A DNA stretch of 64,000 bases from Mobula hypostoma (Eukaryota), in assembly GCF_963921235.1 (NCBI RefSeq), contig NC_086097.1, positions 72,294,001-72,358,000 on the forward strand, given 5' to 3'. Positions 2,923 through 60,460 of the stretch are shown here, in pieces. The notes below the pieces were generated by a model that was not told where the DNA came from, ran no database searches, and saw only the letters and a program-made list of their open reading frames with translations. Each line of letters starts with the position of its first letter. Position 1 is the first letter of the stretch. The translations under genes were made by a program, and so were the position numbers.

Positions 2923-3279
2923 AACACGAGGAATTCTGCAGATGCTGGAAATTCAAGCAACACACATCAAAGTTGCTGGTGAATGCAGCAGGCCAGGCAG
3001 CATCTCTAGGAAGAGGTACAGTCGACGTTTCGGGCCGAGACCCTTCGTCAGGACTAACTGAAGGAAGAGCTAGTAAGAGATTTGAAAGTTGGAGGGGGAG
3101 GGGGAGATCCAAAATGATAGGAGAAGACAGGAGGGGGAGGGATGGAACCAAGAGCTGGACAGGTGATTGGCAAAAGGGATATGAGAGGATCATGGGACAG
3201 GAGGCCCAGGGAGAAGGAAAGGGGGGGGGGAACCCAGAGGATGGAAAAGGGGTATATATTTAACATTCAACAGGGGTAT
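2923..3279 (-). mobile_element. Penelope-like element 3' fragment (3'UTR, hammerhead, tail)
   Basis: Near-identical to 7295-7627; flanked by 13-bp direct repeat acctgtcaacatt (2910-2922, 3280-3292). Confidence 0.9.
3019..3060 (-). ncRNA. Minimal type I hammerhead ribozyme (PLE-associated)
   Basis: Reverse complement cagttagtc-CTGACGA-agggtctcggccc-GAAAC-GTC-gactg: catalytic core, stem I agtc/gact, stem II GGGU/GCCC, palindromic ACGU in place of stem III. Confidence 0.85.
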
Positions 3280-3937
3280 ACCTGTCAACATTGCTGGGAC
3301 TTCCTGCCCATCACACCTGAAAATGAGTGCAAGGAGAAATATGTTAGAGATCATCTAAATAATATAAGCTTTATGAGCATTAGATCTCCATTTACAATTC
3401 CAATTGGTGGAAGATATTGAAAATATATTTCTCAAATAAGCATAATTTATTATGCAAGACAATTTAATGTGTTCATTTATGCATTCATAAACAAATCTTT
3501 AGTCCAGAATATGCACTTAAGGGTAAAGTATTCTGAAAGCAATACCATTTCAAAAATACAATCCATAATCTAGGATAATCTTTTTTTGCGCAGGAATTAA
3601 TGTGCTAAATCAAATCTACTGTAAAGATACTCAAGTATCTTTAATACTGGTGAATGAAATGATACTACAAGAGATCTTAAGATAATTTCATTAGTGCCTT
3701 AACAACGTGCAAGGGAAGAGATAGGTATTAACTATCTAAAAGTGTGAAATAATTATCACAAAATAAAGCTGTAGAAGTGGGTGAGCCTAGAAGATAATAA
3801 ATGATCATCAGCAAAGCAGAGATTTAAAACAGGTGACTTTAGCTATTGTGGATACTCAAATTGTCCTCTTCCACCATTCTGTAGATTCTGAAATTGTTCC
3901 TGTGGATCAAAGGGCAGTGAATCTGATTCAGAAGAGA

Positions 3938-4062
3938 TTCTGAACATGCTGGAAATCCAGAGTAACGCACGTAAAATGCTAGAAGAACTCAGCAGGTCAG
4001 GTAGCATCTATGGAAAAGAATAATGAGTCAATGCTTTGGGCTGAGACCCTTCATCAAGATTG
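3938..4062 (-). mobile_element. Degenerate PLE 3' tail with decayed hammerhead (older subfamily)
   Basis: Reverse complement has ttgatgaagggtctcagcccaaagcattgact followed by the agatgct...ctgctgagttc tail. Confidence 0.65.
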
Positions 4063-4724
4063 ATGAATGCATCTGATTACTGTATTCAAGAAAAGAGGGA
4101 GAGAGGAAACCAGTGACTACCAACTTATTTGCCAATGTTAGGGAAAAGGCTGGGATCTAAAATGAAGGATATACACCTTAAAAAAATGACAGGATTGAAC
4201 AAGGTCAGTGTGGACTAATGAGGAGAAAATTAGTTGGAGGTCTTTGAGAATATGACTGGTAGAATAACTAAGAAGGAAACAGTGGTATGATGTTCATATA
4301 TGGGTTTCCAGATGGATTTTGATATTGATAATATTTTGTACAGAAGGCTGGTTGAGAAGGTTAAAACAGGTTCAATTAAGAGTACTGTAATATACTGACA
4401 AACTGAGAATTGGTTACTGAACAGAAAGTAGAGAGCAGTAGAAAATGGATCCTCATCAAGTTTGCAGGCTTTAACAAGTGGGATACCTCATGAATCAGTG
4501 TTTCGGCCCCAGTGATTCACAGTGGTTTGGCCAGCAGAACCAGACGTGCTGATGATAGTGAATCAGGTGGGATTGTGAGTAGAGAACAGAATGTAAGCAG
4601 GATTCAAAGGGATTTGAACAACTCAAGTCAGTTGGTGAGAACATGGTGCAAGATATACAATGTGAAAAATGTGTGGTCACCCAATTTGGTGAACAGAACA
4701 GAAAAGCAGGGTATTGATAGATAG

Positions 4725-4854
4725 ATAAATCCCTTACTCACTCTTCCTTCAGTTAGTCCTGACGAAGGGTCTCGGCCTGAAACGTCGACTGCGCCTCTTC
4801 CTATAGTTGCTGCTTGGCCTGCTGCGTTCACCAGCAACTTTGATGTATGTTGTT
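4725..4854 (+). mobile_element. PLE 3' fragment with hammerhead
   Basis: Matches 12077-12202; 13-bp TSD tattgatagatag (4712-4724, 4855-4867). Confidence 0.9.
4750..4791 (+). ncRNA. Minimal hammerhead ribozyme
   Basis: cagttagtc-CTGACGA-agggtctcggcct-GAAAC-GTC-gactg; predicted cleavage after C4786. Confidence 0.85.
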
Positions 4855-5486: not shown

Positions 5487-5620
5487 TTAGTCCTGAAGAA
5501 AGATCTCAGCCCGAAACATCAATTATCTGTTCATTTCCATAGATGCTACCTGACCTGTTGAGTTCCTCCAGCATTTTTATGTGTGTTGCTTTGGATTTCC
5601 AACATCTGCAGACTTTCTCA
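5487..5620 (+). mobile_element. Degenerate PLE tail with hammerhead remnant
   Basis: agtcCTGAAGAaagatctcagcccGAAACATC followed by the agatgct...ttgagttcctccagca...catctgcag tail. Confidence 0.7.
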
Positions 5621-6423
5621 TGGACGATGCTGGAAAGGGGCATGGATCTTGATGAATAACAGAACAGGCCTGAAGTGATCTCTGGGCTACACCTGCTCCT
5701 GTTTCTTACGTTGTCATGCTCTTTTGAGGTTCAAAATAATGGCCGAGCCATTCAAGAATACACAGATAAGATCAAAAGCCAGGAAGTTCACATGGAGCAG
5801 TGTAATAGATAAATGTTAATTGACACAAAAATCTCTGCTACAGATGAGATTGGATGAGTTCTGGGGGTGGGGGAAAGCTCAGTATTTACAAGATGGTTGT
5901 GTTGGGAGACTGGCTGAATGGACTGATCAAGCACAGATTGAATTGGGTGTTAAGAGGAGAATGCGCTGCAATGTAGAAGCAGTTCAAAAGCTCTAAACAT
6001 ACTGTAAGAGATGCCACAGCAGGTATTGGTTTCTTCGTGTCAGTCCCAATGCAGCAAAAACACTGCGCAGCAAGATAAACTGAAAAGTGACGGCCGAATT
6101 AAAATCTTGGAGACAGTCCAGAAAGGGAAAGTCAATAGACCTGATTTTGAGATTTTGAGAGGAATGGCAGGCAAGTGGGCATGTGAATGTGGGATGATGT
6201 GAAAGCAGAGGCATAAAGTTGGAACTACTTAAAAAAATCCCAAAGTAGAGATTGTTGTATTCATGATATCCTGTAACATTCCAAATATACTGTATCACTG
6301 TAGCCCCACTTGCTTAGTGCCGGTAACCATAGTTAAATTTAATATTAACAGTTGAGTATTAGAATATGTAACACATTGGGCCAGAATACATCAATCTAAG
6401 CTGATGTTGTAGAGTCATTGGGT

Positions 6424-7130: not shown

Positions 7131-7388
7131 GTCTCGAGGTAACTTATCATGCTAGCCCCACAGCCACATTGAATTTCTGGAGAAGAAAACTCCTAAGGAT
7201 CTGCTAGGACCATCACCACAACCCTGCAATGAATAGCGAATGAGGTATTCATGTCCAAAATAAAGCCAAAGAGGCTAAATGAAGTGTATTAAAACAACAG
7301 GAATTCTGCAGATGCTGGAAATTCAAGCAACACACATCAAAGTTGCTGGTGAACACAGCAGGCCAGGAAGCATCTGTAGGAAGAGGTG

Positions 7389-7430
7389 CAGTCGACGTTT
7401 CAGGCCGAGACCCTTCGTCAGGACTAACTG
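7389..7430 (-). ncRNA. Minimal hammerhead ribozyme (left arm)
   Basis: Reverse complement is identical to 4750-4791. Confidence 0.85.
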
Positions 7431-7718
7431 AAGGAAGAGTGAGTAAGGAATTTGAAAGTTGGAGGGGGAGGGGGAGATCCAAATTGATAGGAGAGGACAG
7501 GAGGGGGAGGGATGGAGCCAAGAGCCGGACAGGTGATAGGCAAAAGGGATACGAGAGGATCATGGGACAGGAGGTCCGGGAAGAAAGACAAGGGGGGGGG
7601 GACCCAGAGGATGGGCAAGGGGTATATTCAGAGGGACAGAGGGAGAAAAAGGAGAGTGAGAGAAAGAATGTGTGTATAAAAATAAGTAACAGATGGGGTA
7701 CGAAGGGGTGGTGGGGCA

Positions 7719-10473
7719 TTAGCGGAAGTTAGAGAAGTCGATGTTCATGCCATCAGGTTGGAGGCTACCCAGACGGAATATAAGGTGTTGTTCCTCCAAC
7801 CTGAGTGTGGCTTCATCTTTACAGTAGAGGAGGCCGTGGATGGACATGTCAGAATGGGAATGGGATGTGGAATTAAAATGTGTGGCCACTGGGAGATCCT
7901 GCTTTCTCTGCCGGACAGAGCGTAGATGTTCAGCAAAGCGGTCTCCCAGTCTGCGTCGGGTCTCGCCAATATATTAAAGGCCACATCGGGAGCACCGGAT
8001 GCAGTATATCACCCCAGTCGACTCACAGGTGAAGTGTTGCCTCACCTGGAAGGACTGTTTGGGGCCCTGAATGGTGGTAAGGGAGGAAGTGTAAGGGCAT
8101 GTGTAGCACTTGTTCCGCTTACACGGATAAGTGCCAGGAGGGAGATCAGTGGGGAGGGATGGGGGGGACGAATGGACAAGGGAGTTGTGTAGGGAGCGAT
8201 CCCTGCGGAATGCAGGGGGGGGGAGGGAAAGATGTGCTTAGTGCTGGGATCCCGTTGGAGGTGGCGGAAGTTACGGAGAATAATATGTTGGACCCGGAGG
8301 CTGGTGGGGTGGTAGGTGAGGACCAGGGGAACCCTATTCCTAGTGGGGTGGCGGGAGGATGGAGTGAGAGCAGATGTACGTGAAATGGGGGAGATGTGTT
8401 TAAGAGCAGAGTTGATAGTGGAGGAAGGGAAGCCCCTTTCTTTAAAAAAGGAAGACATCTCCCTCATCCTAGAATGAAAAGCCTCATCCTGAGAGCAGAT
8501 GCGGCGGAGACGGAGGAATTGCGAGAAGGGGATGGCATTTTTGCAAGAGACAGGGTGAGAAGAGGAATAGTCCAGATAGCTGTGAGAGTCAGTAGGCTTA
8601 TAGTAGACATCAGTGGATAAGCTGTCTCCAGAGACAGAGAGAAAGATCTAGAAAGGGGAGGGAGGTGTCGGAGATGGACCAGGTAAACTTAAGGGCAGGG
8701 TGAAAGTTGGAGGCAAAGTTAATAAAGTCAATGAGTTCTGCATGCGTGCAGGAAGCAGCGCCAATGCAGTCATCGATGTAGCGAAGGAAAAGTGGGGGAC
8801 AGATACCAGAATAGGCACGGAACATAGATTGTTCCACAAACCCAACAAAAAGGCAGGCATAGCTCGGACCCATACGGGTGCCCATAGCTACACCTTTAGT
8901 TTGGAGGAAGTGGGAGGAGCCAAAGGAGAAATTATTAAGAGTAAGGAGTAATTCCGCTAGACGGAGCAGAGTGGTGGCAGAGGGGAACTGATTCGGTCTG
9001 GAATCCAAAAAGAAGCGTAGAGCTTTGAGACCTTCCTGATGGGGGATGGAAGTATATAAGGACTGGACATCCATGGTGAAAATAAAGCGGTGGGGGCCAG
9101 GGAACTTAAAATCATCGAAAAGTTTAAGAGCGTGAGAAGTGTCACGAACATAGGTCGGAAGGGATTGAACAAGGGGGGGATAAAACCGTGTCGAGGTATG
9201 CAGAAACGAGTTCGGTGGGGCAGGAGCAAGCTGAGACAATAGGTCGGCCAGGACAGGCAGGTTTGTGGATCTTGGGTAGGAGGTAGAATCGGGAAGTGCG
9301 GGGTGTGGGAACTATAAAGTTGGTAGCAATGGATGGGAGATCCCCTGAGCGGATAAAGTCGGTGATGGTGTGGGAGACATTGGCCTGGTGCTCCTTAGTG
9401 GGGTCACGATCGAGGGGTAAATAAGAGGAGGTATCCGCGAGTTGTCGCTGTGCCTCGGCAAGGTAGAGGTCAGTACGCCAGACTACAACAGCACCCCCCT
9501 TATCAGCGGGTTTAATAATAAGGTTAGGATTAGTGCGCAGGGAGTGGAGAGCAGAGCGTTCCGAAGGAGTGAGGTTGGAATAGGGACAAGGTGCGGTGAA
9601 GTCGAGACGGTTGATGTCCCGTCGGCAGTTAGCAATAAAGAGATCCAGAGCAGGCAGAAGACCAGAGCGGGGTGTCCATGAAGAAGAGGAGGGTTGAAGA
9701 CAGGAGAAGGGGTCATCGGTGGGGGTGGAAGAGTCCTTGCCAAAGAAGTAGGCTCGGAGACGGAGACGGCGGAAGAAAAGTTCCGCATCATGGCGAACAC
9801 GGAACTCGCTGAGGTGTGGGCGACGGGGGACAAACGTGAGGCCCTTACTGAGAACAGAGCGTTCTGCCTCCGACAGTTGAAGGTCGGAGGGGATGGTAAA
9901 GACCCGGCACGGATGAGAGCTGGGATCAGAGGGGGGAGAGGGGAGGCTGGGTGTGTGAATGGAGAGGGAAGGGTTGGGGTGAGAGGAAGATGGAGCCTCC
10001 AAGGGCCCAGGAGCTGACGATGGGATCTGAAGGAGACGGGATTGCAGAGTATTGGTGGTGGAAGGGGAGACGGGAGTCACAACAGCAGCGCATAAAGACC
10101 CGGCCTGGAGCTCAAGGCTGGAGTTGCAGTTGGTGGTTGCGCAATCGCTGTGAAGGTGTCCATGGTCGTTGCTGGAGTCCGGGTTTTGAATATGTCCTGA
10201 GGTGTTGGAGCCTGCGAGATCAATGGCAGATGCCGCAATCTGAAGTTCATGCCTGCTAGTTTCAGGGCCAGCAGGCTCTGGAGTCCGTAGATGTAGGATC
10301 TTGCGATCTTTGCCTAACATGACAAAGTAAAAAAAAAACGGCGATTGCAGGCGTGAATCCGACGGAGGATGAAATAACGGGTAGGACCATTACAGACGGC
10401 GAAGAAAGTGTCCCGAAGGTGTGGAAGGGTCTGGGATAGGGACACCCAGTACCTCCTCATGGCGGAGAGAGTC
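7719..10473 (-). pseudogene. PLE polyprotein (N-terminal domain, RT, Cys linker, GIY-YIG endonuclease); 5'-truncated and frameshifted
   Basis: LSKGLTFVP, IIKPADKGGAVVV, FYLLPKIHK...GRPIVS, MDVQSLYTSIP, KGVAMGT, RYIDD; frameshifts at simple repeats (about 10330, 9175, 8640, 8215); in-frame TAA at 7974-7976; natural stop 7719-7721. Confidence 0.93.
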
Positions 10474-10488
10474 ATTATATACATTATA

Positions 10489-11848
10489 GGATGTCCAGTC
10501 CTTATATACTTCCATCCCCCATCAGGAAGGTCTTAAAGCTCTACGCTTCTTTTTGGATTCCAGATCTAATCAGTTCCCCTCTACCACCACTCTGCTCCGT
10601 CTAGCGGAATTAGTCTTTACTCTTAATAATTTCTCCTTTGGCTCCTCCCACTTCCTCCAAACTAAAGGTGTAGCTATGGGCACCCCTATGGGTCCTAGCT
10701 ATGCCTGCCTTTTTGTTGGGTTTGTGGAACAATCTATGTTCCGTGCCTATTCTGGTATCTGTCCCCCACTTTTCCTTCGCTACATCGATGACTGCATTGG
10801 CGCTGCTTCCTGCACGCATGCAGAACTCGTTGACTTTATTAACTTTGCCTCCAACTTTCACCCTGCCCTCAAGTTTACCTGGTCCATTTCCGACACCTCC
10901 CTCCCCTTTCTAGATCTTTCTGTCTCTGTCTCTGGAGACAGCTTATCCACTGATGTCTACTATAAGCCTACTGACTCTCACAGCTATCTGGACTATTCCT
11001 CTTCTCACCCCGTCTCTTGCAAAAATGCCATCCCCTTCTCGCAATTCCTCCATCTCCGCCGCATCTGCTCTCAGGATGAGGCTTTTCATTCTAGGACGAG
11101 GGAGATGTCTTCCTTTTTTAAAGAAAGGGGCTTCCCTTCCTCCACTATCAACTCTGCTCTTAAACGCATCTCCCCCATTTCACGTACATCTGCTCTCACT
11201 CCATCCTCCCGCCACCCCACTAGGAATAGGGTTCCCCTGGTCCTCACCTACCACCCCACCAGCCTCCGGGTCCAACATATTATTCTCCGTAACTTCCGCC
11301 ACATCCAACGGGATCCCACCACTAAGCACATCTTTCCCTCCCCCCCTCTCTCTGCATTCCACAGGGATCGCTCCCTACACAACTCCCTTGTCCATTCGTC
11401 CCCCCCATCCCTCCCCACTGATCTCCCTCCTGGCACTTATCCGTGTAAGCGGAACAAGTGCTACACATGCCCTTACACTTCCTCCCTTACCACCATTCAG
11501 GGCCCCAAACAATCCTTCCAGGTGAGGCAACACTTCACCTGTGAGTCGACTGGGGTGATATACTGCATCAGGTGCTCCCGATGTGGCCTTTAATATATTG
11601 GCGAGACCCGACGCAGACTGGGAGACCGCTTTGCTGAACATCTACGCTCTATCTGGCAGAGAAAGCAGGATCTCCCAGTGGCCACACATTTTAATTCCAC
11701 ATCCCATTCCCATTCTGACATGTCCATCCACGGCCTCCTCTACTGTAAAGATGAAGCCACACTCAGGTTGGAGGAACAACACCTTATATTCCATCTGGGT
11801 AGCCTCCAACCTGATGGCATGAACATCGACTTCTCTAACTTCCACTAA
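10489..11848 (+). pseudogene. PLE RT C-terminal half plus GIY-YIG endonuclease; 5'-truncated, one in-frame stop
   Basis: KGVAMGT, RYIDD, FLDL, YYKPTD, CKRNKCYTC...FTCESTGVIYCIRCSRCGL*YIGETRRRLGDRFAEH...GMNIDFSNFH*; the Cys-rich linker is typical of the Neptune clade. Confidence 0.93.
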
Positions 11849-12098
11849 GGCCCCACCTCCCCCTCGTACCCCATCTGTTACTCATTTTTATGCACACATT
11901 CTTTCTCTCACTCTTTTTCTCCCTCTGTCCCTCTGAATATACCTCTTTCCCATCCTCTGGGTCCCCCCCCACTTCTTGTCTTTCTTCCCGGACCTCCTGT
12001 CCCATGATCCTCTCATATCCCCTTTTGCCTATCACCTGTCCAGCTCTTGGCTCTATCCCTCCCCCTCCAACTTTCAAATCCCTTACTCACTCTTCCTT

Positions 12099-12140
12099 CA
12101 GTTAGTCCTGACGAAGGGTCTCGGCCTGAAATGTCAACTG
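12099..12140 (+). ncRNA. Hammerhead ribozyme (right arm), CpG-decayed
   Basis: CTGACGA...GAAATGTCaactg; two CpG-type transitions relative to GAAACGTCgactg. Confidence 0.7.
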
Positions 12141-12239
12141 CACCTCTTCCTACAGATGCTGCCTGGCCTGTTGCGTTCACCAGCAACTTTGATGTGTATT
12201 GTTAAATGAAGTGTATTTATCTCTTTGGGTCAACTTCTG

Positions 12240-16304: not shown

Positions 16305-16510
16305 ATTTTGTTACCATTGCTGTCAATTTCAACCCTACTCTCACCTTAAAATGGTCCATCTCTGATTCTTCATTTCCCTTCTGAATCTCTCCAGCTCCAT
16401 CTCAGGCTAATTATAAGCAACAATTACATGCCCTCAGAGTCCCACAGCTAGCTGGCCTGTACTTCATCCCTCTCTATCCCCTGCAGAGCTCCATTTCATT
16501 CTCCTAGTCT
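16305..16510 (+). mobile_element. Highly decayed PLE RT fragment
   Basis: aatttcaaccctactctcaccttaaaatggtccatctctgattc resembles 10853-10900 (NFHPALKFTWSISD). Confidence 0.5.
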
Positions 16511-17836
16511 TGCTTTGGTGATAAATTGTTGTTGAAGTTATATGCCGACGGCTAGACAGATGGAACACAAGCACAGGAACGTGAATGGTGTGTAATGCAA
16601 GACTATGAGAAATTACAATAAACACCAACATAATCTTAAGGAATCTCAGCTCATCGTCCATTTGGGCATGTTGCAATCTTCTGAAGTCAATATTAAGGGC
16701 AAGAGCCTCGGGCAACTCACTTTCTTTAATCATGTCAGTACCGGCCAGTCTGCTGCAGGTCACCCATCTGTAATAACAGGTCAGTTCTTTCCTTCTCCAT
16801 TGATATGGCCTGAGCTGCTCAGATTCCTCACAGCTTTGCAAAACACCATTCAATATCCTTTGTCTGTGTTCCAGCTCCCCAGCTGTTGCCAGTAGCCTAA
16901 CTACCAGACAACCTCATCAAGTGGCAGCTTTATCACCCAAGAAGTCCTGGCCTCAGCCTGTCAAAGATATTCCTTTGGTTTTAACCATCCTCATTACAAC
17001 TTAAGCATATTGTTTTCTTTCTTTCTTGTCTGATAAGGGTCCTTCACTAAAGTGCTCATCTTCCAACAGATGCTACTTGACCTGTTGTTTTCAGATTGTG
17101 AATTAGTTCTCAGCAGATGACAATAAACAAGTTTTTAAACCAGTGCTGAAATATATCAGAATTATTGAAGTTTCATTTACAATACAAAATAGCAATAAGT
17201 CCTCAATGAAAATTTGCCATATCAGTCATGATACACTCAAAGCAATAGGTTCAGTATTTGTATGTGTTAGCTTTTAGTAAACTACCTAGCTGTACCCACT
17301 GCACTGCACCTTCCCTGTGGCCTTACAAAATTCTCCTTTAAAGGAATATATCCTATTGCTTTTAGAAGTCATGACCGAATTAGCAGCAACTAACCATCTG
17401 TGTGGTGATAATATCATTCTAGATCATAACCATCCACAGCTAAAAATAAAATTCTCAATTCCACAGCCTCACTCATTTCTTTTTTGCCAATTGTTCATCA
17501 GTAGTGTCATCGGATTACTGACCCTGCAAGTGAAAATTCTTTCTCTTGATTTACTTCTGAACACCTCTATTAAATCTCCCCCTAAGCTTCTCTGCCTTAA
17601 AGATAAATTCCAGCCACAAATCTTTCCACATAACTGAAGTGCCTCATCCTTGGTATCATTCTAATAAACTATTTTTTTGTACTTTCTCCAAAGACTTGAC
17701 ATCAAATGTGCCCAGAATTTAACAAATTGCTCCAGCTGTGGTTCTAACCAGTTATTTAAAAATATTTGACGTAATGTCACTGTGTTTGTATTACTTGTTT
17801 CTATTTATAAATACAAGGATCACCTTCAAATATCTG

Positions 17837-17931
17837 CAACACACATATAAGTTGCTGGTGAACGCAGCAGGCCAGGCAGCATCTCTAGGAAGAGGTGCAG
17901 TCGACGTTTCAGGCCGAGACCCTTCGTCAGG
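17837..17931 (-). mobile_element. Minimal PLE insertion (hammerhead plus tail only)
   Basis: 15-bp TSD accttcaaatatctg (17822-17836, 17932-17946); 5' end falls within hammerhead stem I. Confidence 0.9.
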
Positions 17932-17933
17932 AC
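17898..17933 (-). ncRNA. Minimal hammerhead ribozyme
   Basis: Reverse complement gtc-CTGACGA-agggtctcggcct-GAAAC-GTC-gactg. Confidence 0.8.
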
Positions 17934-18476
17934 CTTCAAATATCTGTTCATGTGAAATCATGTTTGTCTAGCTATGAACCCTTTTAAAATGACCTACCCT
18001 TTTAAAATTGAATATTTAATTTATGTTGCCTTTGTGGAATATTGGTGCCCAGCCTAAATGAATGGCTGCTATGTGAGACAGAATTAACCCTGGAAAAGCA
18101 GATACAGATATGTGAAGCTGTGGAGCTATCTGCAGCCGGGCTGGAATTGTTGGCTAGCCAACAAGAGGAAGTAAGTACATGTGGTGAAACACAGGCCAAA
18201 AGACAGAATAGAGAAACCACAGCCAAAATGACTTGTGTGCTTCAAATAACATGCGCGACAACATGAGCAGCTGAAGAGGAAGTTTGCTGCGGTTGGGAAT
18301 AGTGCGAATGACAGGGATGATTTCTAAAAGCAATGCATGATGAATTGGGCATAAAGATCATGGAATGGGCAAGATGAGTCAAGCAGGGCAGAGACGGGAT
18401 GGGATGCACAGTTCAGCTGAACATAATGTACTAATACCTTTGGAGAGAGCACCCAGTCAAAGTTTCATTGCCAAGA

Positions 18477-18799
18477 GGAGACACAAAAGACTGCAGATAC
18501 TGGAACTTTGAGCAAGAAACATACTGTTGGAGGAACTCAGTGGGTTGATCACTATCTACGGGGGAAAGGTATTGTCAACATTTCGGGCACTGCTCCCACT
18601 CTGTGATTTCTACTGCTCTCCTGTTCTTCAATTATATTCTTACCTGCCACCCATCATCGGCCTCCTGTCTCACTCCTCCCACTCTCTCCCTTCTCAATTC
18701 TCAGTTATGCTGCAGGATCTGGACACAAAACATTCCTCATTCCCACCCTCCCACAAATGCGGCTCCTCCCGTTGAGTTCCTTGAGCAGTTTGTTTTACA
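18477..18799. mobile_element. Old two-tailed PLE insertion
   Basis: Minus tail 18481-18588, plus pyrimidine-rich UTR and tail to about 18797; decayed TSD tttcattgccaaga / tttcagtaccaaga (18463-18476, 18800-18813). Confidence 0.6.
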
Positions 18800-19199
18800 T
18801 TTCAGTACCAAGATGCTGGGGCCAAGGAATTTCAGCTTCATTTGGGAACTTCACAGAGCATCCTCCCAAAGCAAGTCCTCTGTCTCAAGTTATGTGCTGC
18901 TGATGTGCTGTAAAATCATGCTGGGGTGTGCACATCCAGAGAGTCACAGAATGATTTCAAAAGATTTTTAAAAAACGGTTTTACAAATCCATACCAGCTA
19001 AGTATACTGTAACTTCAATCTAACTGGTCTCAAACTCAGCCCTCTCCCCATCCCTCTGCAAGTTCTATCCTTTCAGACTCCTACTCAGTTCCCTTTTGTG
19101 TCATACTCTCTGCTTCTATAAAACCCGAAGCACTGGGTGGTTCCTTTAACCAATTTCTCAACATGCCCTATCACTTTTTGACAAAATGAAATCATACTG

Positions 19200-19700: not shown

Positions 19701-19718
19701 AGTAAATACCAAATAATT

Positions 19719-22340: not shown

Positions 22341-24320
22341 TGATAAGTCCTCACACGATATCTATTATTTTGTTCCCTTCAGCAAGAAAAGTTTGTGTGC
22401 AACGCTGATGGTGTACCGCTATGTTAGGTGGGTGAACAAAAAGAAAATGGCCATAGGAAGTGTGTGGTGAGCGAAGAATCTGAGGGGAGAGAACGAAAAC
22501 AGGAAAACTAAATAAAACATATAAGAGAGGGGGAGGGGGGGATAAGACTAATTAACTTTTCTGGAAAGAGATTGTGTTTAAAAATGGCAACAATGTTTGG
22601 AAGTATGTGTCAGTATTTCAGAACAACAGAACAATGGAGAAAGATTTAAAAGTTTTGCACTGGTAAACCAAATTTCAGGTGATATTCATGTCCAACTCTT
22701 CTGACCGTGATGGGTGGAAAAACTTTTAATTTATTACACCGTCTAGTGCAACCAGCTAAGCCTGGTGATGAGCATCATGAGGTCTTAGCTAAAGTCTTAA
22801 AGGACCACTATTCACTAAACCTTTGATTATTGCTGAGATTTTTAGGTTTCATAAAAGGAATCGAGAGGAAGGTGAGTTTATTTTACAGTTTGTGGTTGAA
22901 CTGAAGCAATTGTCTGATCACTGTGATTTTGGACTGTCGCTGAATGACACATGACATGATAGACTCGCATGTGGTCTGCATAGTGAGGCAATTCAGAAAC
23001 ATTTGCTTACAGAAGACAGACTAACATTACAGAAGGCAATTGAGATTAGTACATCTATGGAGATGTCACCTAAAGAAGAATAGCAGTTAAGTGTATCTTC
23101 CCAAGTTCATAAAGTTTCTACTGACTTTAAGAATAAGGCATGTATTGGCAATCATTGTTAACTTTGTGGAAAAACTGGGCATTCAGCAAATGAATGCTGG
23201 GATAAAGATTTAAATTGTCGAAGCTGTGGCAAAAAGGACATATTAAAACTATTTGTAAAAGTAAAAAGACACTGTCAACCAAAAACACTGCAATTAAGAA
23301 AATTGACTTTTGGAAAAAAAAGGAAACGTGAACAGGATGGAGCATACTGAGGACAGATTGAGTGATTTTCACTCCATTGTTGAAGAAGCTTTTTATGCTT
23401 TATTTATTTCCATATACAAAGATGGCTACCAGGTGACCCCATGGTTGGATGTGGGCCACGGTGCGGTAGCAGATAGACATGGATGTTGCAGTATTGCTGG
23501 TGTCAGAGACGGTTTACCAGGAGAAATTTCAGCATCTCACCCCCAGAAGGGGCAAGGTCGACTTTAAAGACATACATTGGTGGGATTGTCCCAGTGAGGG
23601 GAGTAGTACATGTTACAGTGGCAATTAATGAACAGAGAAAGAAACCTCCACTGCACATTGTTAAAGGTAGTTACCCAGTGCTTTTGGGATGTTAGTGGGT
23701 GGAGCAGCTCAAACGCAACTTGCATTAGGTACACTTGATTGGTGGGAGCACTGGTCTACAAGATGTATTGAAAAAACTTGCAGAAGTATTCATTGTGGAA
23801 CTGGGCAGTATGAAAAGAATCCCTATTAAGTGGGCTGCTAATCCAACACAACACACAAATGCCTGAAAGTAAAACCTATTCCATGTGTCCTGAAACAAAA
23901 GATAGAGGCTGAATTGGAAAGACTGGCCCAGAGTTGGTATTGGAACCAGTGTGTGTAAGTAAATGGGCAACTCCAGTGGTTCCTGTCCTAAAAAGGGATG
24001 GGTCTTTAAGGGTCTGTGGAGACTTCAGGGTAACCATTAACCAGACTCTTAGGGCTGAACAATACCCTCTTGTCCTCATTAATGACCTTGTTTTTGAAGA
24101 ATTGGCTAGAGGACAGACACTTAGCAAGACTGACTTGTGTCAAGTACTGCATGTGGAGCCAGGGTCCCAGGATAGGTTGACCATAGTGACTCACAAAGTA
24201 ACATTCAGATGCTGAAGGCTTCCATTTGCCATTAACTTGGCTCCTGCACTTCTCAGCAAGCAATGGACCAGATCCTGAGCAGGTTTACAGGAGTGCAATG
24301 TTACTTGGATGACTTACCCA

Positions 24321-24929
24321 TGTATGGGGTCTTTTTTTTTGTATGTTAAATTTTAAATGGCTTCTTTGTTATGTTATACTGGGGAATGCTTCTCTGTTAT
24401 GTTAAATGCTGAGAAAGTCTCTAGCTAGACAGTTGTTTGGGTTAATATAGATAGCAGAGTGCTATTAGCCAATGGGTGTTCATGTATCATTCTTTTTCGA
24501 ATGATAATGCTGTCTTATATGACTGGGGACGGAGATTTTGGCGGGGAGTCAGAGGAGAGACGGAGAGGATGGCGGACATGCGGAAAGGCTCCGGTCAATA
24601 ACTTCAGGAGGTCTCGAGCCGTGAGTCGACAGGATCCGGGTGGTCACCAGGAATTGACTGAGCTCCAACGGTTGCGCGCGAAGAACTTGGACTGTGATAA
24701 GTCTTGGCACATTTTTTTCACTACTTCCTTTTCTGTATCGAATTTATATTAATGTCATAGACTTAGTAATATCTATAAAGTGCACTTGGTAAAATGTACT
24801 GGGTGTGCTGGCTGATGACTGATGTTTGGGCTTGATTCGGGCGACAACCGACTCCGTGGGAAGCGTTGAGGCAGGTGCTGGGTGGGATTTCCCCTAGACA
24901 TATACAAGCCAATATAACAGAACATTACA
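24321..24929. mobile_element. Solo LTR of a second LTR retroelement inserted just after YLDD
   Basis: TG...CA termini; 4-bp TSD ccca (24317-24320, 24930-24933); removal restores YLDDLPITGKNE. Confidence 0.8.
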
Positions 24930-24978
24930 CCCATCACTGGGAAAAATGAGTGTGAGCACCTACAAAGCCTGGATGCTA

Positions 24979-25029
24979 AACACAAAATAATCTGCAGATG
25001 CTGGGATCAAAGTTCCTCCAGCACGTTGT
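24979..25029. mobile_element. 51-bp two-tailed PLE micro-insertion
   Basis: 14-bp TSD aagcctggatgcta (24965-24978, 25030-25043); minus tail aacacaaaataatctgcagatgctgg plus plus-strand piece gttcctccagcacgttg. Confidence 0.8.
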
Positions 25030-26879: not shown

Positions 26880-27430
26880 GTTCCTCTGATTGGTGAAGCC
26901 AGATGGGTGGGAAAGACAAAGGGTTAGAGAAGAAGGATTCTAATAGGAGAGGAGAGTGGACCATTATTGAAAGGGAAGGAAGAGGGGACCCAAGGGGAAG
27001 TTATAGGCTGGTGAGAAGAAGTAAAAGGCTAGAATGGGGAGTAGAAGAAGAGGGGAGGGGAGGGAAAAAATTACCAGAAGGAGAAATCGATATTCATGCC
27101 ATCAGGTTGGAGGCTCCCAGACAGAACATAAGGTATTGCTCCTCCTCCCTGAGGGTGGTTTCATCTTGGTACAAGAGGAAGCCATGACCGACAGGTTGGA
27201 ACAAGAATGGGAATCCAAATTAAAATGCTTGGCCTCTTGAAAGTTCTGATTCTGGCGAATGGCCCGGAGGAGCTCGACGAAGCGGTCCCTCAACTTACAA
27301 CGGGTCTCACCAATGTAGAGGAGACTGCAGGGGTAGAGCTGGACATAATAGACAACCCAGCAGATTCACAGGTGAAGTGTTGTCTCACCTGGAACGAGTG
27401 TTTGGGGCCGTAAGTGGAGGTGAGGGATAC
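26880..27430 (-). mobile_element. PLE GIY-YIG and 3'UTR fragment inside the Gypsy 3' region
   Basis: Reverse strand encodes FQVRQHFTCES...CSLLYIGET...RDRFVELLR...HFN. Confidence 0.8.
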
Positions 27431-28575: not shown

Positions 28576-29477
28576 CTAACACACACAAAGTGCTGGAGGA
28601 ATTTATCAGGTCTGGCTGCATCTATGGAAATGAATAACTTTTTGACATTTTGAGCCAAGACCCTTCATCAAAGGGAGGGGAAAGAAGACAAGTAGGTGAG
28701 AGAGTGGGAAGGAGTACAACCTAGAAGGAGATAGGTGAAGCCAGTTGGGTGGGGGAGGGTAGAATGGATTAAGAAGCTGGGAGATGATAGATGGACATGA
28801 TAAAGAGCTAGGGAAGAAGGAATCTGGTCGGAGAGTAGAGTGGACCATGGAAAAAATGGAAGGATGCACAAATGGGAGGTGACTGGTAGGTGAGGAGAAG
28901 TGAAGAGGTAAGAGAGAGGCAAGAGTGGGGAATTGAAGAAGAGTGAAGGTGAAGGGGGAAAATATCAGAAGTTTGAGAAATTGATGCCCATGCCATCAGG
29001 ATGGAGGCTACTCAGACAGAATATGAGGTGTTGCTCCTCCAACCAGAGAGCTTCCTTATCATGGCGGTAGAGCCGGCCATGGACTGACATGTTGAATGGG
29101 GATTGGAATGAAAGTGGATGTATCGGCATGTCAGAATGGATAGGAGACTCTCCTCTCTGATCAGATTCCTTCTTTTCCAGCCCCTTACCTTTTCTACCTA
29201 TCATCTCCAAGTATTTTACTTCATTCCCCCTCCCCCACCCACCTGGCTTCACCAATCACATTCTAACTTGTACTTCTTCCACTCCTTCCCCCAGCCCCTC
29301 CCCCCACCACTGCATCTTCTAATTCGGTCTTCTTCATCCTTCCTTCCCTGTCCTGATGCACCAAAATGTTGACTGTTTATTCATTTTCATAGATGCTTCC
29401 CAACCTGTTGAGCTCCCCCAGTATTTTGTGTGTGTTGCTTTGGCTTTCCGGCATCTGCAGAATCTCTTGTGTGTGTT
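28576..29477. mobile_element. Older two-armed PLE insertion
   Basis: Minus arm to about 29140 (LEEQHLIF...PDGMGINFSNF), plus arm 29147-29477; 12-bp TSD atctgatgcatt (28564-28575, 29478-29489). Confidence 0.85.
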
Positions 29478-35929: not shown

Positions 35930-36023
35930 CACACGCAGAATTCTGGAGGAACTCAGCAGGCCAGGCAGCATCTACGGAAAAAGGTACAGTCGACGTTTCA
36001 GACCAAGCCCCTTCATCAGGACT
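35930..36023 (-). mobile_element. PLE tail with hammerhead (35987-36023)
   Basis: Reverse complement agtc-CTGATGA-aggggcttggtct-GAAAC-GTC-gactg followed by the agatgctgcctggcctgctgagttc tail. Confidence 0.75.
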
Positions 36024-37574: not shown

Positions 37575-38095
37575 TTCTCAGAGAGGCCATTGGTTCATGT
37601 CATTTCCTTGGAGAGGCCACTGATTCAATCCATATCCCTCTAAGGGGGCCGTTGGTTCATATCATTCCCTTGGAGCGGGTGCTTGTTCGTGTTGCTTCCT
37701 TTGGAGAGGCTGCTGGTTCATGTTGCTGCCCTTGGAGAGGCTACTGGATCATGTCACCTCCCTCTGAGGGGCCGCTGGTTCATGTTGCTGCCCTTGGAGA
37801 GGCCACTGGATCATGTCACCTCCCTCTGAGGGGCCTCTGGTTCATGTTGCTGCCTTTGGAGAGGCCATTGGATCATGTCACTGAACTCAGAGAGGCCACT
37901 AGCTTGTATGGCTTCCCTCTGAGGGGCTGCTGGTTTGTGTCGTCTTCCTCGAAGAGGCCACTGGTTTGTGTCACTTCCCTTCAGAGGGGTTGCTGGTTCA
38001 TGTCATATCCCATTGGAGAGACTGCTTGTTTGTGTCTCTTCCCCTCGGAGGGGCTACTGGTTTGTGTCTCTTACCCTCAGAGGGGCCACTGGGTC
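37575..38095. repeat. Minisatellite, about 30-31 bp unit with a dimeric higher-order pattern
   Basis: Alternating units like cccttggagaggccactggatcatgtcacct and ccctctgaggggccgctggttcatgttgctg; roughly 17 units. Confidence 0.85.
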
Positions 38096-38382: not shown

Positions 38383-38479
38383 TTCACCCTTATCATATCA
38401 GTGTACTAATACTTAGACTTGATATGACTTTAGAGCAAGTTTTGTTCATATTTACTGAACAAAACATCATACATTTCAA

Positions 38480-38644
38480 ACAACAGGAATACTGCAGATG
38501 CTGGAAATTCAAGCAACACGCATCAAAGTCTCTTACTAACTCTTCCTTCAGTTAGTCCTGACGAAGGGTCTCGGCCTGAAACGTCGGCTGTACCTCTTCC
38601 TAGAGATGCTGCCTGGCCTGCTGCGTTCACCAGCAACTTTGATG
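38480..38644. mobile_element. Small two-tailed PLE insertion
   Basis: Minus tail 38480-38529, plus piece 38530-38644; 14-bp TSD atcatacatttcaa (38466-38479, 38645-38658). Confidence 0.9.
38549..38590 (+). ncRNA. Minimal hammerhead ribozyme
   Basis: cagttagtc-CTGACGA-agggtctcggcct-GAAAC-GTC-ggctg. Confidence 0.8.
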
Positions 38645-41322: not shown

Positions 41323-42470
41323 CCAGTGCCGAACAGATGGCTCGTGGTGGAGGAGTTGAGAAGACAGGAGAAGGCAGAGCGAAACGCCAGGGCTGTCTCA
41401 ATGGCCAAGCAGGGCCAATGAACTATTTGGGAGAGCCTGGAAAAGAGGAAACTTAGCTGACGTGACATCTGGGAGATGGAGGGATCTTGGCTCGGTTTTG
41501 TCATCGGAGCCACTTATGACCTCCTACCCACACCCCAGAACCTGAACCAGTGGTGGGGAGAAGACCCCACTTGCTTTCTTTGTCAAGCACCTGCATCACT
41601 AAGACACATTTTAACAGGACGCACCATGAGCCTCACCCAGGGGCGGTACACTTGGCGGCATAACCAAGTTCTCAGACAGCTGGCATCAATCTTGGAACAG
41701 AGGCGAATCACCACAAATGCTCTCTCACAAAAATCAGCAAGAAATGTTCACATCACACGATTTGTACCAGCAGGCCAACATCCAGAGCACCATATAACAT
41801 CAAAAGAGGTAAGCATTCTGCAGGTTGCTCGGGATTGGAAAATGGATGTGGACTTGGAAAAAAAAGCTTGTGTTTCCCCCAGACATTGCGGCTACAACAT
41901 TCCAGCCAGACATGGTCCTGTGGTCTACAACAGCCAAGCTGGCATATGTTGTGGAATTGACAGTACCGTGGGAAGATGGTGTCAAAGAAACTTATGAGAG
42001 GAAAAAGACCAAGTACTCTGAACTGGCAACTGAAGCTGCCTAGAATGGCTGGGAGACCAAGATTTTCCCTGTCGAAGTGGGATGCAGGGGATTCATTGCT
42101 ACATCTACGACCAGTCTATTGAAGAAGATGGGGGTGAGGGGTCACTCCCTCCAACAAGCAATCAAGTCCTTGTTAAATGCAGCAGAAGAAAGCAGCGATT
42201 GGATTTGGATTAGAAGGAAAGACAACAACTGGGCTGCAAGATGAAGACAGGAGGGTATGGAACTGAGGTGGGGGGGGTGGTTTATCTGGGATGCCAGGTA
42301 GCACCGTTGAGCCCTCTGGAGACGTCGTGGGCTTATCAACGAAACGTCAAAGAAGGAGGGTGCCCACCTGATGATCCCAATGATGTACCTACCCTCCCTG
42401 CTTGTCACCACTCCAAGCCCACTGCCAACATCGAGGTTGCCAACTTACCATAGGGATTGAAACATCAAGT
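41323..42470 (+). mobile_element. Hero-like (R2 group, restriction-like endonuclease) LINE 3' fragment
   Basis: YDLLPTPQNL..W, C-FL-C...HIL zinc-knuckle remnant, GRYTWRHNQVL, PDMVLWS...VELTVPWE...YERK..KY, PVEVGCRGF; stop at about 42244. Confidence 0.85.
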
Positions 42471-50129: not shown

Positions 50130-50750
50130 GAGAAGTTGTACAATTGGAATGGTTTGCTCCTGAACTGCATGGGGACCAATATCCTTTGGGGAAGGTTTGC
50201 TAGTGTTTCTCTGAATGGTTTAAACTAGAATTGCAGGGTGACAGGAACCAGAGTGTTAGGACAGATAGTGGTGTGGATGCATGGAAGAATTACGTTTAGT
50301 CTACATACAAACACAGCTACACCCTAATAGTCCATGGGGTTCAGAGGAACAGATTTGTAGAGTGATTGCAGATAGTTTCAAGAAATATAAAGTTGTGATG
50401 GTAGATTATTTTAATTTTCCATAGATTGTCTGGGACTCGTACAATGTAAAAGTTCTGAATGGGATAGAGATTGTCAAATGTGTTCCTGAAAGTTTCCTTA
50501 ATCAGTATGTAGAACTTCGGAGAGTGTAACGTGTAATACCAGATCTCCTCTTGGGGAATGAAATAGGTTAGGTGATAGAAGTTTATGTAGGGGACACTTT
50601 GCATCTAGTGATCACATTACCATTAGTTTTAAGGTAATTATGGAAAAGTATGGATCTGGTCCTCAGGTTAAGACCCTAAATTAGAGAAAGACCAATTTTG
50701 ATGGCTTTGAAAAGGATCAAGCAGATATGAATTGGGATAGGTTGTGTTCC
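50130..50750 (+). mobile_element. CR1 ORF1 end / APE endonuclease remnants
   Basis: ttgctcctgaactgcatggggaccaatatcc, MVDYFNF-like and SSDHITISF motifs. Confidence 0.6.
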
Positions 50751-51838
50751 GTTCCCAAGTCGCAGACTGCATCAGGTTTTTCTCCAGGAATTCCCCATAC
50801 TTTGTTGCATTCATTTAACCCTCCTCCTTCACAAGCTTTCCAGGGCCTGATGCAGTGAAGTATCCCCACATAATGCAGCCACCACCATGCTTCACAGTAG
50901 AGCCGGTGTGTCTTTGATGATGTGTGGTGTCTGGCTTACGCCACACATAGCGTTTAGTCTGATGGCCAAAAAGCTCGATTTTGGTTCCATTAGACCATAG
51001 AACCTTCTTCTAACTGACTTCAGAGTCTCCCACGTGCCTTCCGGCAAACTCTAGCTGAGACTTCATGTGAGTTTATTTCAACAACGGCTTTCTCTTTGCC
51101 ACCCTCCCATACAGCTGCCACTGGTGAAGCACCCAGGCTACAGTTGTTGTACACACAGTCTCTCCCACCCTAGCCACCGAAGCTTGTAACTCCTCCAGAG
51201 TTGTCCTAGGTCTCTTGGTGGCCTCCCTCACTAGTCTCCTTTTTGCATGGTCACTCAGTTTTTGAGGATGGCCTGCTCTAGACAGATTTACAGCTGTGTC
51301 ATATTCCTTCCATTTTTTGATGATTGACTGAACTGTACTGCAAGCAATATTCAGAGACTTGGAAATGTTCTTGTATCCATCTCCTGACTTGTACTTTTCA
51401 ATAACCTTTTTGCAGAGTTGCTTGAAGTGTTCTTTTGTCTTCATGGTGTAGTTTTTGCCAGGATACTGACTCACCAGCAGCTATACCTTCCAAATGCAGG
51501 TGTTATTTTATCACAATCAATTGAAACACCTTGACTGCACACAGATCTCCAAAAACTGATCTCCATTTAACTAATTATGTGACTTCCTAAAACCAATTGG
51601 CTGCACAAGTGATGATTTGGTGTGTCATATTAAAGGGAAGGTGAATACTTACCCAATCAATTATTTTGTGTTTTATATCTGTAATTAATTTAGATCACTT
51701 TGTAGAGATCATTTTTCACTTTGACATGAAAGAGTCTTTTTCTGTTGTCAAATTAAATCCGCTGTGATTCAATGTTGTAAAATGAAAAAACATGAAAACT
51801 TCCAGTGGGGAGGTTAAATAATTTTTATAGGCACTATA
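50750..51838 (-). mobile_element. Tc1 DNA transposon, 3'-truncated
   Basis: MKTKEH...KSGDGYKNISKSLNI..STVQSIIKKWK...RVAKRKPLL, then VLWSNGTKIELFG and VKHGGG; terminal tttttataggcact-ata TIR-like end with TA. Confidence 0.9.
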
Positions 51839-57200: not shown

Positions 57201-58064
57201 AAATGGACACCCTGAAGTCAGAAGATGCCACAATACAATAGGTGTGAGGAAATTATGATCATAGTTATCTGATTATGGAAATCATATCCGTAAAAAAGAA
57301 AATAAACAAATTCTGATAGATTCTAAAAACTAAACTCAGCTTGAAGACTTACATAAATGCTATGGTAGATGTTGAGTGTTTGCTGTGGAATTAAAATACT
57401 GTGCTGTGCCTAAAAATACTTTTATTTTGGCAATGTATACATAATCATAAAATTATAAACCATTTATAAACTCTCATCAATTTACCATCAAATTACACGT
57501 GTGCAGAAAATAATTTGAAGTTTTAGGATTCTTAATTGTTTGACAATTTTCTTAAAAGTAAGATAAATTATATTTCAAATGTGTTTATTTTCAATTACAG
57601 CTAGAGATGTGTGAAATCCATTTGTAGCTTTGCAGGTAGAAAAAATAGTTATCACAAAACTTGTAGTGGAAATATCTTGGGGTAGTTTGATATTTCATAC
57701 ATGAACTTAAGAGGTGAACAAGAAGTTTAAGTACAACCTTTTGCCACCCCTGGCTGAGTGGTAGAATTCTCAGTATTAACTTAAGGTCTTTGGTCAAGCA
57801 TGTCCCCAAACACTACAGCACACAATCAACAATGATATTTCAGTACAAAACTGAAGAAGTATTGTATTGTCAGATGGTTTCAGGTATAAGATGAAACGTT
57901 AAATCAAATTCACTTTTCAGGTGGCAAACTCCATTCAAATTGCCTAGCTCATAGGATGTCATCTAATTGCCTGCTAAATGCTTGCAATGTATTATTTTTT
58001 TTGCATAAACTCTTGAACTAATCATTCCAAAATTAAGAGTGAAAGAGTCAGCTTACTCTTTTCT

Positions 58065-58760
58065 CCAATGCATTGGAGAAACATAAACGGGTTGGGTAAC
58101 TGTCTTGTGGAGCACCTGTGTTCAGCCTGCAGGGTGATTTCTAGCTCCCTGTTCCTAGGCATTTCCGTTGTTCTTCCCACTTCCATTCCAGCTTCTTACA
58201 CTGTTATAGTGCGAATCAATGTAAGCTTGGGGATCAGCTACTCGTTTTTCATCTGGGCAGGTTATAACCTTTTGGACTTGATATCAATTCTTCCAACTTC
58301 AGGTAACTCACTTCCCCTGTAAGGCACTTATCTGTGAAATTGCCTTAGTTTTTCTCTCTCCATCAGCACAGCCTGACATGCTGGACGTAAGCTACTGCCC
58401 TGCACATTACAGCTTCTTACATTCCAATATTTCACATTATTCTAAGTACACTTACTGCATCTAACAGTGTTTATACTTTTTCTCTTTCTTTAACTGCTCC
58501 TATCAACCTATAGATTAGGTGACATCTACAAATGATCTCTGTGGTAATCTTGGCCTCACCCTGTCAGAGATACTCCATTTGTCCTTTCAATCTGTTCTCA
58601 GCCTTCACTGCAATGTAAAACTAACTTCCTTTTTTATCTTACACGTTCTGACAAAGGGTCATCAATTTGAAAAGTTAACTCTGTATTTCTTTCCAGAGAT
58701 GCTGCCTAGCCTGTTAAGAGTTTTCTGCATTTATTTCAGATTTCCAGCAACCTCAGTTTA
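58065..58760 (+). mobile_element. Ancient PLE 3' fragment
   Basis: attggagaaaca (IGET) remnant; ctgacaaagggtc...gaaaagtt decayed hammerhead; agatgctgcc...tttccagca tail. Confidence 0.55.
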
Positions 58761-59864
58761 ATACTTGATCTACTTCTCTCATGTAAGGACATGACTGGTG
58801 AACAATAATTGCATTGAGCCAATAAAGAGGAGATATTTAAAACAATGTGGAATCTTAAAGATTTGATTAATATCTGATTGGCTAAGAAACATCAACCACT
58901 GCAGTAAGTAAAGAAGAACACAAATCTAGCACACTCTTCTGTGAGTCTCCAGACAGCAAGATAAAACTATTATTTATTAATATTGCATAGAACTTGAAAA
59001 ATCACTGCAGGATCTAACTCTAACCCACATAGGAATATTCTGATATACTGTAAATAGATGCCAAAAATGCATCTGCTCCTGTTATTTTTAAGGTAAGCAT
59101 GAGGCAGTATTCTGGTGATACTGACGGCATCATTGATTCTGTTATGTTTAATATTCACCATTGCTTCTCATGTAGATAAACAGAATTATAGAATCCTTGA
59201 AATGTAGAAGGAGACCATTCACTCCAAACAGTTTATACCGGCTCTTTGTAAAGTAATCCAGCTGGTTGCATTTCTCCCCTTTTTCTTGCAACCCTGCAAT
59301 TATTTGGCTTCAAGTGCCCGGATTGACTCCACACTTACAATGAGCTCCAGATCATAAGCAACCACTGTTAATGATGTTTAATCTCAAATTTCCCATATGT
59401 TATTTGCCCATTATCTTAGCTCCGTCCAGTCTGATTTGGTTGGTCCTTCATTATTTATCCCATTTGAACCCATCATAATCTTGGATGCATCTATAATAAC
59501 TCCCCTAAACCTTCAATGCACTCAGAAGAATTGCTGTTTCTCCAATCAGATCTGATAACTGGAATCACTTATCACCATGGAATATTTCCATATGTCTATA
59601 TTTAATACAAATGCCTATTGTTCTGTCAGTGCTGAAAGGAGCCACGAATGCTGCAGTCAAGAGAAATGATGTAAGCACTTACTTGGCTTCTATTGTGAAC
59701 CTTTTCTATTTTTAAAAATGAAATAATTCCAAAACTAAGAGGACAAGTTTGCTGATTTAGCATAGAAGTGCTGTAAATATTTGAATGATGAGGTTGTGCA
59801 GGATCTATTCATTTTTCATGTAATCCACTAGTTGTACAGTCTGAGAATTGCATTCATTGTATGC

Positions 59865-60460
59865 AAGGAAGGTGGCTAGCCATTTAATTCTACTTCCCAT
59901 TCCCTTTTCAACATGTCAGTGCATGGCCTCCTTTACTGTTGCAATAAAGCCACAGGCTTGAAGCGCAATACCTCATATTCTGTCTGGATAGCCTCTGACC
60001 TGATGGCATGAACATCAATTTATGACCTGCTAATTCCCCCTTCTCCCTTCTCTCTTTTTACATTCCCCATTCTGGCTCCCCTCTTAGCCCTTCACTTCTC
60101 ATCTGTTCAACATCTCCCTCTGTTGTCCTTCATCCTGCCCTTTCTCCCATGGTTCACTCTCCTATCTGATCAGATTCCTTCTTCTTCTGCCCTTCATCTC
60201 TTACACCTATCATCTCCCAGCTTTTCATTTCATCCCCACCACTCCCAACAAACTACCTTCCCCCTCACCTAGCTTCACCTATCACTTGTCAACTTATAGT
60301 CCTTCCCCTCCCCCCCCACCCCCACACCTTCTTAATCTGGCTTCTTCTCTCCTCCGTTTCAGTCCTGATGAAGTGCCTCGGCCCAAAATGTTGACTACTT
60401 ATTCCTCTCCACAGATGCTGCCATAGCTGCTGAGTTCCTCCAGCATTTTGTGTGTTGCTC
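59865..60460 (+). mobile_element. PLE 3' fragment with decayed hammerhead (60360-60398)
   Basis: HLILLP/MSVHGLLYC/PDGMNIN remnants; cagtcCTGATGAagtgcctcggcccaaaatgttgact. Confidence 0.75.

Follow-up and report, generated by a model that had tools for sequence, protein, structure and literature searches.

A 64,000-nucleotide stretch of the Mobula hypostoma genome (contig NC_086097.1, positions 72,294,001 to 72,358,000; the whole stretch is referred to as the window) contains dispersed copies of a short hammerhead-like motif. These motifs very probably represent the minimal hammerhead ribozyme that a Penelope-like retroelement (PLE) carries in its end repeat, left in 5'-truncated insertions and likely inert and decaying. 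The solo copies appear to be passengers, most likely not cutting host transcripts, because their ends extend past the cut site, most have a G.U wobble at 10.1-11.1, they break at CpG sites, they are predicted to take an off fold, antisense twins lie nearer than same-strand copies, and no host exon was found among the frames scanned. The initial annotation had suggested that two same-strand copies in one host pre-mRNA could dimerise and cut it, an idea that is unsupported.

The pattern CTGANGA-N10-16-GAAACGTC has six matches in the window, where 0.01 are expected by chance and 0 of 100 shuffles reach six. All are CUGANGA-stem II-GAAACGUC motifs located where the initial annotation had placed its six copies with an intact core, and all have the 11 invariant core letters, the ACGU palindrome and C17, which at 4759+ is C4786 as had been assigned. 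The reduction of stem III to this palindrome is seen in 6/7 young copies. The closing stem described as agtc/gact is present as AGUC/GACU in four of the six; 17903- reads ggtc, being cut inside stem I, and 38558+ has a ggct wobble. Likewise, the short stem II is found in the other intact copies and is degraded or weak in 35992-. The latter represents another subfamily, with 19-22 of 87 letters differing from the other six young copies as opposed to 3-7 among those six. An unpaired A precedes stem II in all copies, and the G10.1-C11.1 pair is present only in 3024- (1/6), the remaining five having G.U at this position. A G.U pair at 10.1-11.1 lowers rather than abolishes hammerhead cleavage.

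Decayed copies were recovered as well. The CpG-decayed copy reported at 12099+ was found with C15.2>T and a CpG change in stem I, and a tail profile detected all six of the older remnants previously listed at E 9e-13 or better, with nothing below E 2.8 in a control search of the reversed sequence. The profile also identified unlisted remnants at 18488-18588(-), 18692-18810(+), 61220-61276(-), 61261-61367(+), 17055-17092(+) and 38489-38530(-). An Infernal-type search had been proposed as a check, and here the outcome is divided: pattern and descriptor searches match, whereas an Rfam scan of the window gave no hammerhead match on these motifs up to E 1, which fits the missing helix III. This silence of Rfam, together with monomer folding z-scores between -0.9 and +1.0, would suit a mere look-alike of a hammerhead, arisen by chance or descended from a non-catalytic hairpin. 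Such an origin is extremely improbable, as families whose flanks do not align nevertheless have an invariant core and compensatory stems, a covariation that already contradicts it.

These families come from 80 metagenome loci encoding proteins of invertebrate-type relatives, about 50% identical (best-segment identity mostly 40-63%), many of which stem from few samples and are not independent. A descriptor found 20 motifs in the 80 loci versus 0-1 in each of 20 shuffles, and a sense-strand motif is present in 11 of the 42 loci with enough 3' DNA, 10 of these motifs lying 92-154 nt past the predicted end of the open reading frame (ORF). Beyond the motif, no alignment was found between the relatives' flanking DNA and the window tail. 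Fifteen motifs were aligned, three from the window and 12 of the 20, excluding three near-duplicates and five of other stem length. All 11 core columns are invariant, six of eight stem pairs change on both sides, and 91.7% of cells are paired compared with 22-45% when slid. The stem covariation is partly circular, as the first descriptor required stems, and a core-only search served as a check; it returned 32 matches with stem II in 26 and both stems in 22, and the unpaired A and G10.1-C11.1 occur in 26/26 of the stem II-bearing matches. Absence of preferential core conservation had been named as part of what would speak against a ribozyme, and the opposite is seen in these distant relatives. 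Judging by these alignments, the ribozyme was selected at the level of the element. Three marine metagenome relatives (L004:2184-4558, L008:1005-3663 and L043:1959-4752) also form inverted pairs with a hammerhead in each arm.

By its predicted domains, the carrier is an endonuclease-positive (EN+) PLE with reverse transcriptase (RT), CxxC linker and GIY-YIG endonuclease. The motif at 12108 lies 260 nt downstream of the stop of a frame in arm B of a head-to-head insertion (Table 1), which contains RT, a CX4CxxC linker and GIY-YIG, with one in-frame stop read as X; its Pfam matches, RVT_1 (E 8e-4) and GIY-YIG (E 2e-4), are both below the Pfam cut-off. The opposite arm A supplies the DKG region and the N-terminal part in several frames. 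The carrier protein has 128 longer relatives at E of at most 1e-20 with the same order of RT followed by GIY-YIG, the best named one being a bamboo shark protein (68%), which makes a cartilaginous fish the likely host. With an RT and GIY-YIG frame upstream both here and in relatives, the earlier statement that minimal type I hammerheads are carried by PLE ends holds. Linker cysteines C319, C324 and C327 (CX2-5CxxC between RT and EN) are nearly invariant across 20 sequences, and the linker motif points to the Neptune/Nematis type. No intact carrier ORF is present in the window. A PDB search with the PLE profile gave 0 matches, as did a search of metagenome contigs for the exact tail pattern, and relatives in viral contigs amounted to 0 of 100 candidate stretches.

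The high copy number that had been assumed is borne out by contigs of two DNA runs, in which summed depth reaches 13 and 30 million over the motif bin and 11-61 over the unique flanks. Summed contig depth does not equal copy number, because overlaps between short contigs inflate it; it nevertheless shows that the family is very large in both of these related species.

The structure of the insertions indicates how the motifs were left behind. Exact target-site duplications (TSDs) of 12-15 bp flank 7 of the 13 insertions tested, while 300 random pairs never exceeded 11; an eighth TSD-flanked insertion of 51 bp (24979..25029) was read from the sequence rather than from the TSD test. The targets are AT-rich and non-microsatellite. 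Five of the eight are head-to-head pairs with tails outward (7291-12202, 24979-25029, 28576-29477, 38480-38644 and 61223-61379), and in each of the five one arm ends in a long tail and the other in a short one, as though the two target strands had been primed at different start sites of reverse transcription. The 3' ends of the six young copies lie 59, 66, 67, 68, 101 and 103 nt past C17. Since these copies extend through the cut site, their RNA templates were uncut there, or re-joined. No tandem array occurs at any motif in the window; the copies are solo or inverted. In a second species, among the 15 of 515 joints listed in an empty-site check, the left contig ends at 2923 and the next listed begins at 3326.

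Several details of individual insertions are worth recording. The 4.9-kb head-to-head pair (7276-12217) is one insertion whose arms differ at 42 of 1703 ungapped columns. Arms A and B have 17 common differences from the 2923 copy versus 6 and 7 private ones, and the TAA in the GIY-YIG motif is common to both; these common changes suggest that both arms likely derive from one defective template or two sister templates. The 5' ends of three insertions (17931-17933, about 4060 and about 5487; n = 3) fall at the 5' strand of stem I or slightly ahead of it.

In the element itself, the ribozyme probably works, though weakly, when neighbouring end repeats of a tandem transcript dimerise, and the element's protein probably assists cleavage. 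Reverse transcription would begin on RNA left uncut at the cleavage site, about 60-68 or about 101-103 nt downstream of it, so each truncated insertion would carry one motif as a passenger. The lone motif is predicted to be in an off state with the core paired to the cleavage site.

The old remnants document the decay. All nine that were aligned are broken or lack half of the motif, with G12>A in five and C15.2 or G16.2 changed in eight, and the lesions fall mainly on the CpG sites of the motif. A C-to-T change at 11.1, common to six young copies, removes the CpG preceding G12, the site broken in 5/9 old remnants. As a result, this subfamily would hold an "intact core" longer without any selection.

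Predicted folds agree with inert copies. Monomers are predicted to form a rod, with the core GACG paired to the CGUC of the cut site, and the G5-C17 pairing probability is 0.59-0.98 in 6/7 young monomers. This fold is likely a built-in off state.

Some observations weigh against an inert, neutrally decaying set of copies. The off fold is also predicted in 8/14 relatives; it thus characterises the family and does not signal decay. Magnesium, tertiary contacts and proteins are absent from the energy model. The core furthermore changes less often than the tail. In the six young copies, non-CpG changes number 0/54 in the core and 18/369 in the tail (p 0.15), with 0/12 at core CpG positions; the older copies have 4/58 and 56/423 (p 0.21), and all older copies including the three oldest have 7/80 and 137/609 (p 0.003). 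This tilt leans away from pure neutrality, although it is confounded by mixed subfamilies and by ascertainment of copies via the motif, and the selection signal at the level of single genomic copies is weak.

In the scenario of host cleavage, two same-strand copies that lie kilobases from each other in one host pre-mRNA would form a double hammerhead and cut it. The geometry allows this, as a 14-bp intermolecular double hammerhead can be drawn for 3024-, 7394- and 17903-. Published work shows that the schistosome minimal motif does not cleave as a monomer but does so weakly in vitro as dimeric and trimeric constructs (PMC4209133), and the under-representation of tandem retrozymes in Xenopus introns speaks for some cost to the host (bioRxiv 10.64898/2026.07.22.740005). 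Nevertheless, this scenario is very improbable. The active double hammerhead is predicted to lie 9-17 kcal/mol above two off-state monomers in 8/8 pairs, before a tethering cost that an ideal-chain estimate puts at about 8-10 kcal/mol for sites 4.4-14.9 kb apart. Each of the seven young copies has its nearest opposite-strand copy at 1.7-5.8 kb and its nearest same-strand copy farther off, at 4.4-26 kb, the same-strand partners proposed in the initial annotation being 4.4 and 10.5 kb apart. For the four antisense pairs computed, the predicted duplex energies are -186 to -247 kcal/mol; such pairing would hide the motif, and long double-stranded RNA would be the likelier outcome if the region were transcribed. 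Moreover, published minimal motifs show weak cleavage even when arranged as adjacent dimers (PMC4209133) or depend on the protein of the element (PMC11167929), and only one of nine Xenopus dimers cut in vitro in published work.

Nor was a host exon found among 23 splice-flanked candidates and in Pfam scans of 81 of the 645 unmasked frames (at least 38 aa) and nine long ORFs. The Pfam scan of those frames gave transposon domains and two sub-cut-off matches. Given the partial frame coverage (81/645), the window could be a large intron.

Two runs that are, by guess, RNA contain four contigs that extend at least 31 letters beyond the cut site on each side and are family members from other loci. 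In the two runs, 15 and 11 of 30 unique bins are covered over 2600-4600, which is not evidence on expression. A contig start at 3024, the cut site, was considered as an RNA end and rejected, since contigs cannot show RNA ends, the CpG is a branch point and there is no pile-up among the contigs listed.

Solo tails might instead be protein-switched cut sites, silent in the soma and cut once the element's protein or RNA is expressed. Each solo tail keeps the stretch between the ribozyme and the start sites of reverse transcription (59-103 nt downstream in young copies), six copies retain all core letters, and the anole Poseidon ribozyme cut only with its protein added (PMC11167929). The anole protein, however, needed 172 nt downstream of its start codon, which is longer than these tails, and belongs to another clade; in addition, the anole study saw no RNA-seq reads ending at the cut site (PMC11167929). 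Five of the six intact copies in the window lack the G10.1-C11.1 pair that is kept in 26/26 relatives, and no intact ORF is available there. We therefore consider the chance of such switching to be small. A little smaller still is the chance that the protein or RNA of an element woken in the germline could switch on dormant solo tails and cut the host transcripts carrying them, which, if true, would amount to a transposon-triggered transcriptome cleavage system.

The motif, its carrier, the solo dispersal and the dimer model are already known (Cervera and De la Pena 2014, PMC4209133; reviews PMC6765202, PMC6155905, PMC7229834). Minimal hammerheads have been reported in Xena, Poseidon and Neptune elements of fish, in coelacanth and in Xenopus (PMC4209133), and those of metazoan PLE pseudo-long terminal repeats (pLTRs) resemble the window copies in having a helix III that is only a palindrome, an unpaired base before stem II and a short stem I. 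Published features also include truncated elements bearing solo copies by the thousand and opposite-strand pairs that lie close together. The window copies differ in a stem II of 4 bp and in G.U in 5/6, compared with the highly conserved G10.1-C11.1 of the published motifs (PMC4209133). Cartilaginous fish are not named in the parts of that paper covered, and a literature search found no paper on this hammerhead family in sharks or rays, although supplements, which lay outside the search, may list such motifs. One chondrichthyan is covered by a 2026 preprint, for tandem retrozymes (bioRxiv 10.64898/2026.07.22.740005).

The carrier resembles Neptune/Nematis EN+ PLEs (Craig et al. 2021, PMC8557442) in the order of RT and GIY-YIG, the DKG motif and the CX2-5CxxC linker, and the insertions show the strong 5' truncation, inverted 5'-truncated partner and 30-40 bp tail at one end only that are described for this group. 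Two tail lengths some 35-40 nt apart together with an inverted partner match the described PLE signature (PMC8557442), which in vitro is explained by two start sites of reverse transcription and extension of both target strands (PMC11167929). Unlike canonical EN+ PLEs, the window lacks a tandem pLTR-ORF-pLTR unit and an intact ORF, and its TSDs are clear at 12-15 bp (PMC8557442). The Anolis Poseidon element PAc (Frangieh et al. 2024, PMC11167929) likewise has two start sites downstream of the ribozyme, giving short and long tails, and extends both target strands, with uncut RNA as the main template in anole. PAc belongs to another clade, and the start sites in the window are deduced from genomic ends alone.

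Non-LTR retrozymes are similar in that they carry type I hammerheads in vertebrate PLE-derived non-coding repeats with published dimer-dependent cutting (PMC7229834; bioRxiv 10.64898/2026.07.22.740005). They consist of tandem 150-400 bp repeats giving circular RNAs (PMC7229834), in contrast to the solo or inverted window copies, where young same-strand copies are at least 4.4 kb apart. The domesticated intronic hammerheads of the RECK type, single conserved copies with a full helix III, also differ from this multicopy, TSD-flanked motif without helix III and without a host exon found.

As it stands, the result has little import beyond adding an abundant family from the genome of a cartilaginous fish to the known occurrences of the motif. 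If cleavage of solo copies within host RNA were demonstrated, the stability of host RNA would be under the large-scale control of a retroelement. The family is a good test bed, as its many dated copies on both strands permit a strand-bias test of the cost of latent ribozymes to the host, and paired long and short tails record two start sites of reverse transcription in vivo.

Table 1. Hammerhead copies, PLE insertions and other repeats in the window. Motif spans are pattern matches from the pattern search unless stated otherwise under basis.
Feature	Position	Strand	Motif span	Basis
Minimal hammerhead, only fully canonical copy (G10.1-C11.1), C17 = 3024	3020..3055	-	3024-3051	pattern, alignment
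Minimal hammerhead, core intact, G10.1.U11.1, C17 = 4786	4755..4790	+	4759-4786	pattern, alignment
Arm A's minimal hammerhead with intact core and G.U at 10.1-11.1, C17 = 7394	7390..7425	-	7394-7421	pattern, alignment
Arm B's hammerhead with two changes of CpG type (C15.2>T and one in stem I)	12104..12139	+	12108-12135	alignment; span from profile of tail and copy-by-copy alignment
Hammerhead with insertion 5' end inside stem I	17899-17934	-	17903-17930	alignment
Hammerhead, other subfamily, core intact, stem II degraded, no TSD found	35988..36023	-	35992-36019	alignment, TSD test
Hammerhead with stem I wobble	38554-38589	+	38558-38585	pattern, alignment
5'-truncated PLE insertion comprising 3' region, ribozyme and long tail; TSD of 13 bp at 2910 and 3280; 22-nt filler at 5' junction	2923..3257	-
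128-bp PLE insertion, short tail; 13-bp TSD at 4712 and 4855	4727..4854	+
Arm A of head-to-head insertion: ORF broken across several frames (N-terminal region, DKG, RT, CxxC linker, GIY-YIG), with 3' region, ribozyme and long tail	7291..10488	-
Arm B of same insertion: 5'-truncated inside RT, in-frame TAA in GIY-YIG motif common to arm A, short tail	10489..12202	+
Arm A and arm B pair; 15-bp TSD at 7276 and 12203	7291..12202	.
97-bp PLE insertion, 5' end inside hammerhead stem I; 15-bp TSD at 17822 and 17932	17837..17933	-
Two tail ends inserted head to head (51 bp), no ribozyme; TSD of 14 bp at 24965 and 25030	24979..25029	.		read from sequence
Old head-to-head insertion, both hammerheads broken; 12-bp TSD at 28564 and 29478	28576..29477	.
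Small head-to-head insertion whose minus arm is tail only and whose plus arm has the hammerhead; 14-bp TSD at 38466 and 38645	38480..38644	.
Two tail ends inserted head to head, with half of a hammerhead; TSD of 14 bp at 61209 and 61380	61223..61379	.
Two very old remnants, head-to-head order, not in the initial annotation; no TSD found	18488..18810	.		tail profile
Old remnant, five core or stem III lesions	3929..4062	-		profile, alignment
Old remnant, G16.2>A and broken stems	5487..5622	+		profile, alignment
Very old remnant	58639..58755	+		profile, alignment
Old remnant with broken hammerhead near 60360-60395	59883..60460	+		profile, alignment
Gypsy-like element	22683-26924			zf-CCHC match, rest by eye
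CR1-like long interspersed nuclear element	30014-33600			RVT_1 match
31-bp minisatellite, about 13 copies, opens 192-codon frame	37647-38092
Non-LTR C-terminal fragment	41461-42241			by eye
Tc1 transposase	50720-51480			Pfam matches

Among the remaining features, an Ocular_alb match (E 0.0088) at 16467-16913(-) was rejected, with PDB giving 0 matches, a homologue search 0 of 18 candidates, Atlas 0.82 at best, and one repeat-inflated bacterial-type match. At 16626-16766(-), a 47-codon protein-like stretch lies behind a possible splice acceptor and has no relative in four sequence searches.

Rfam matches to MIR8670 and MIR1033 were also discarded, being far below the gathering score and having their source in the inverted pair of tails at 61223..61379. 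There, at 61219-61323, the two tails fold back into a long hairpin, which is scored as the precursor of a plant microRNA (E 8e-5). Inverted tail pairs could give rise to false microRNA calls or be sources of double-stranded RNA.

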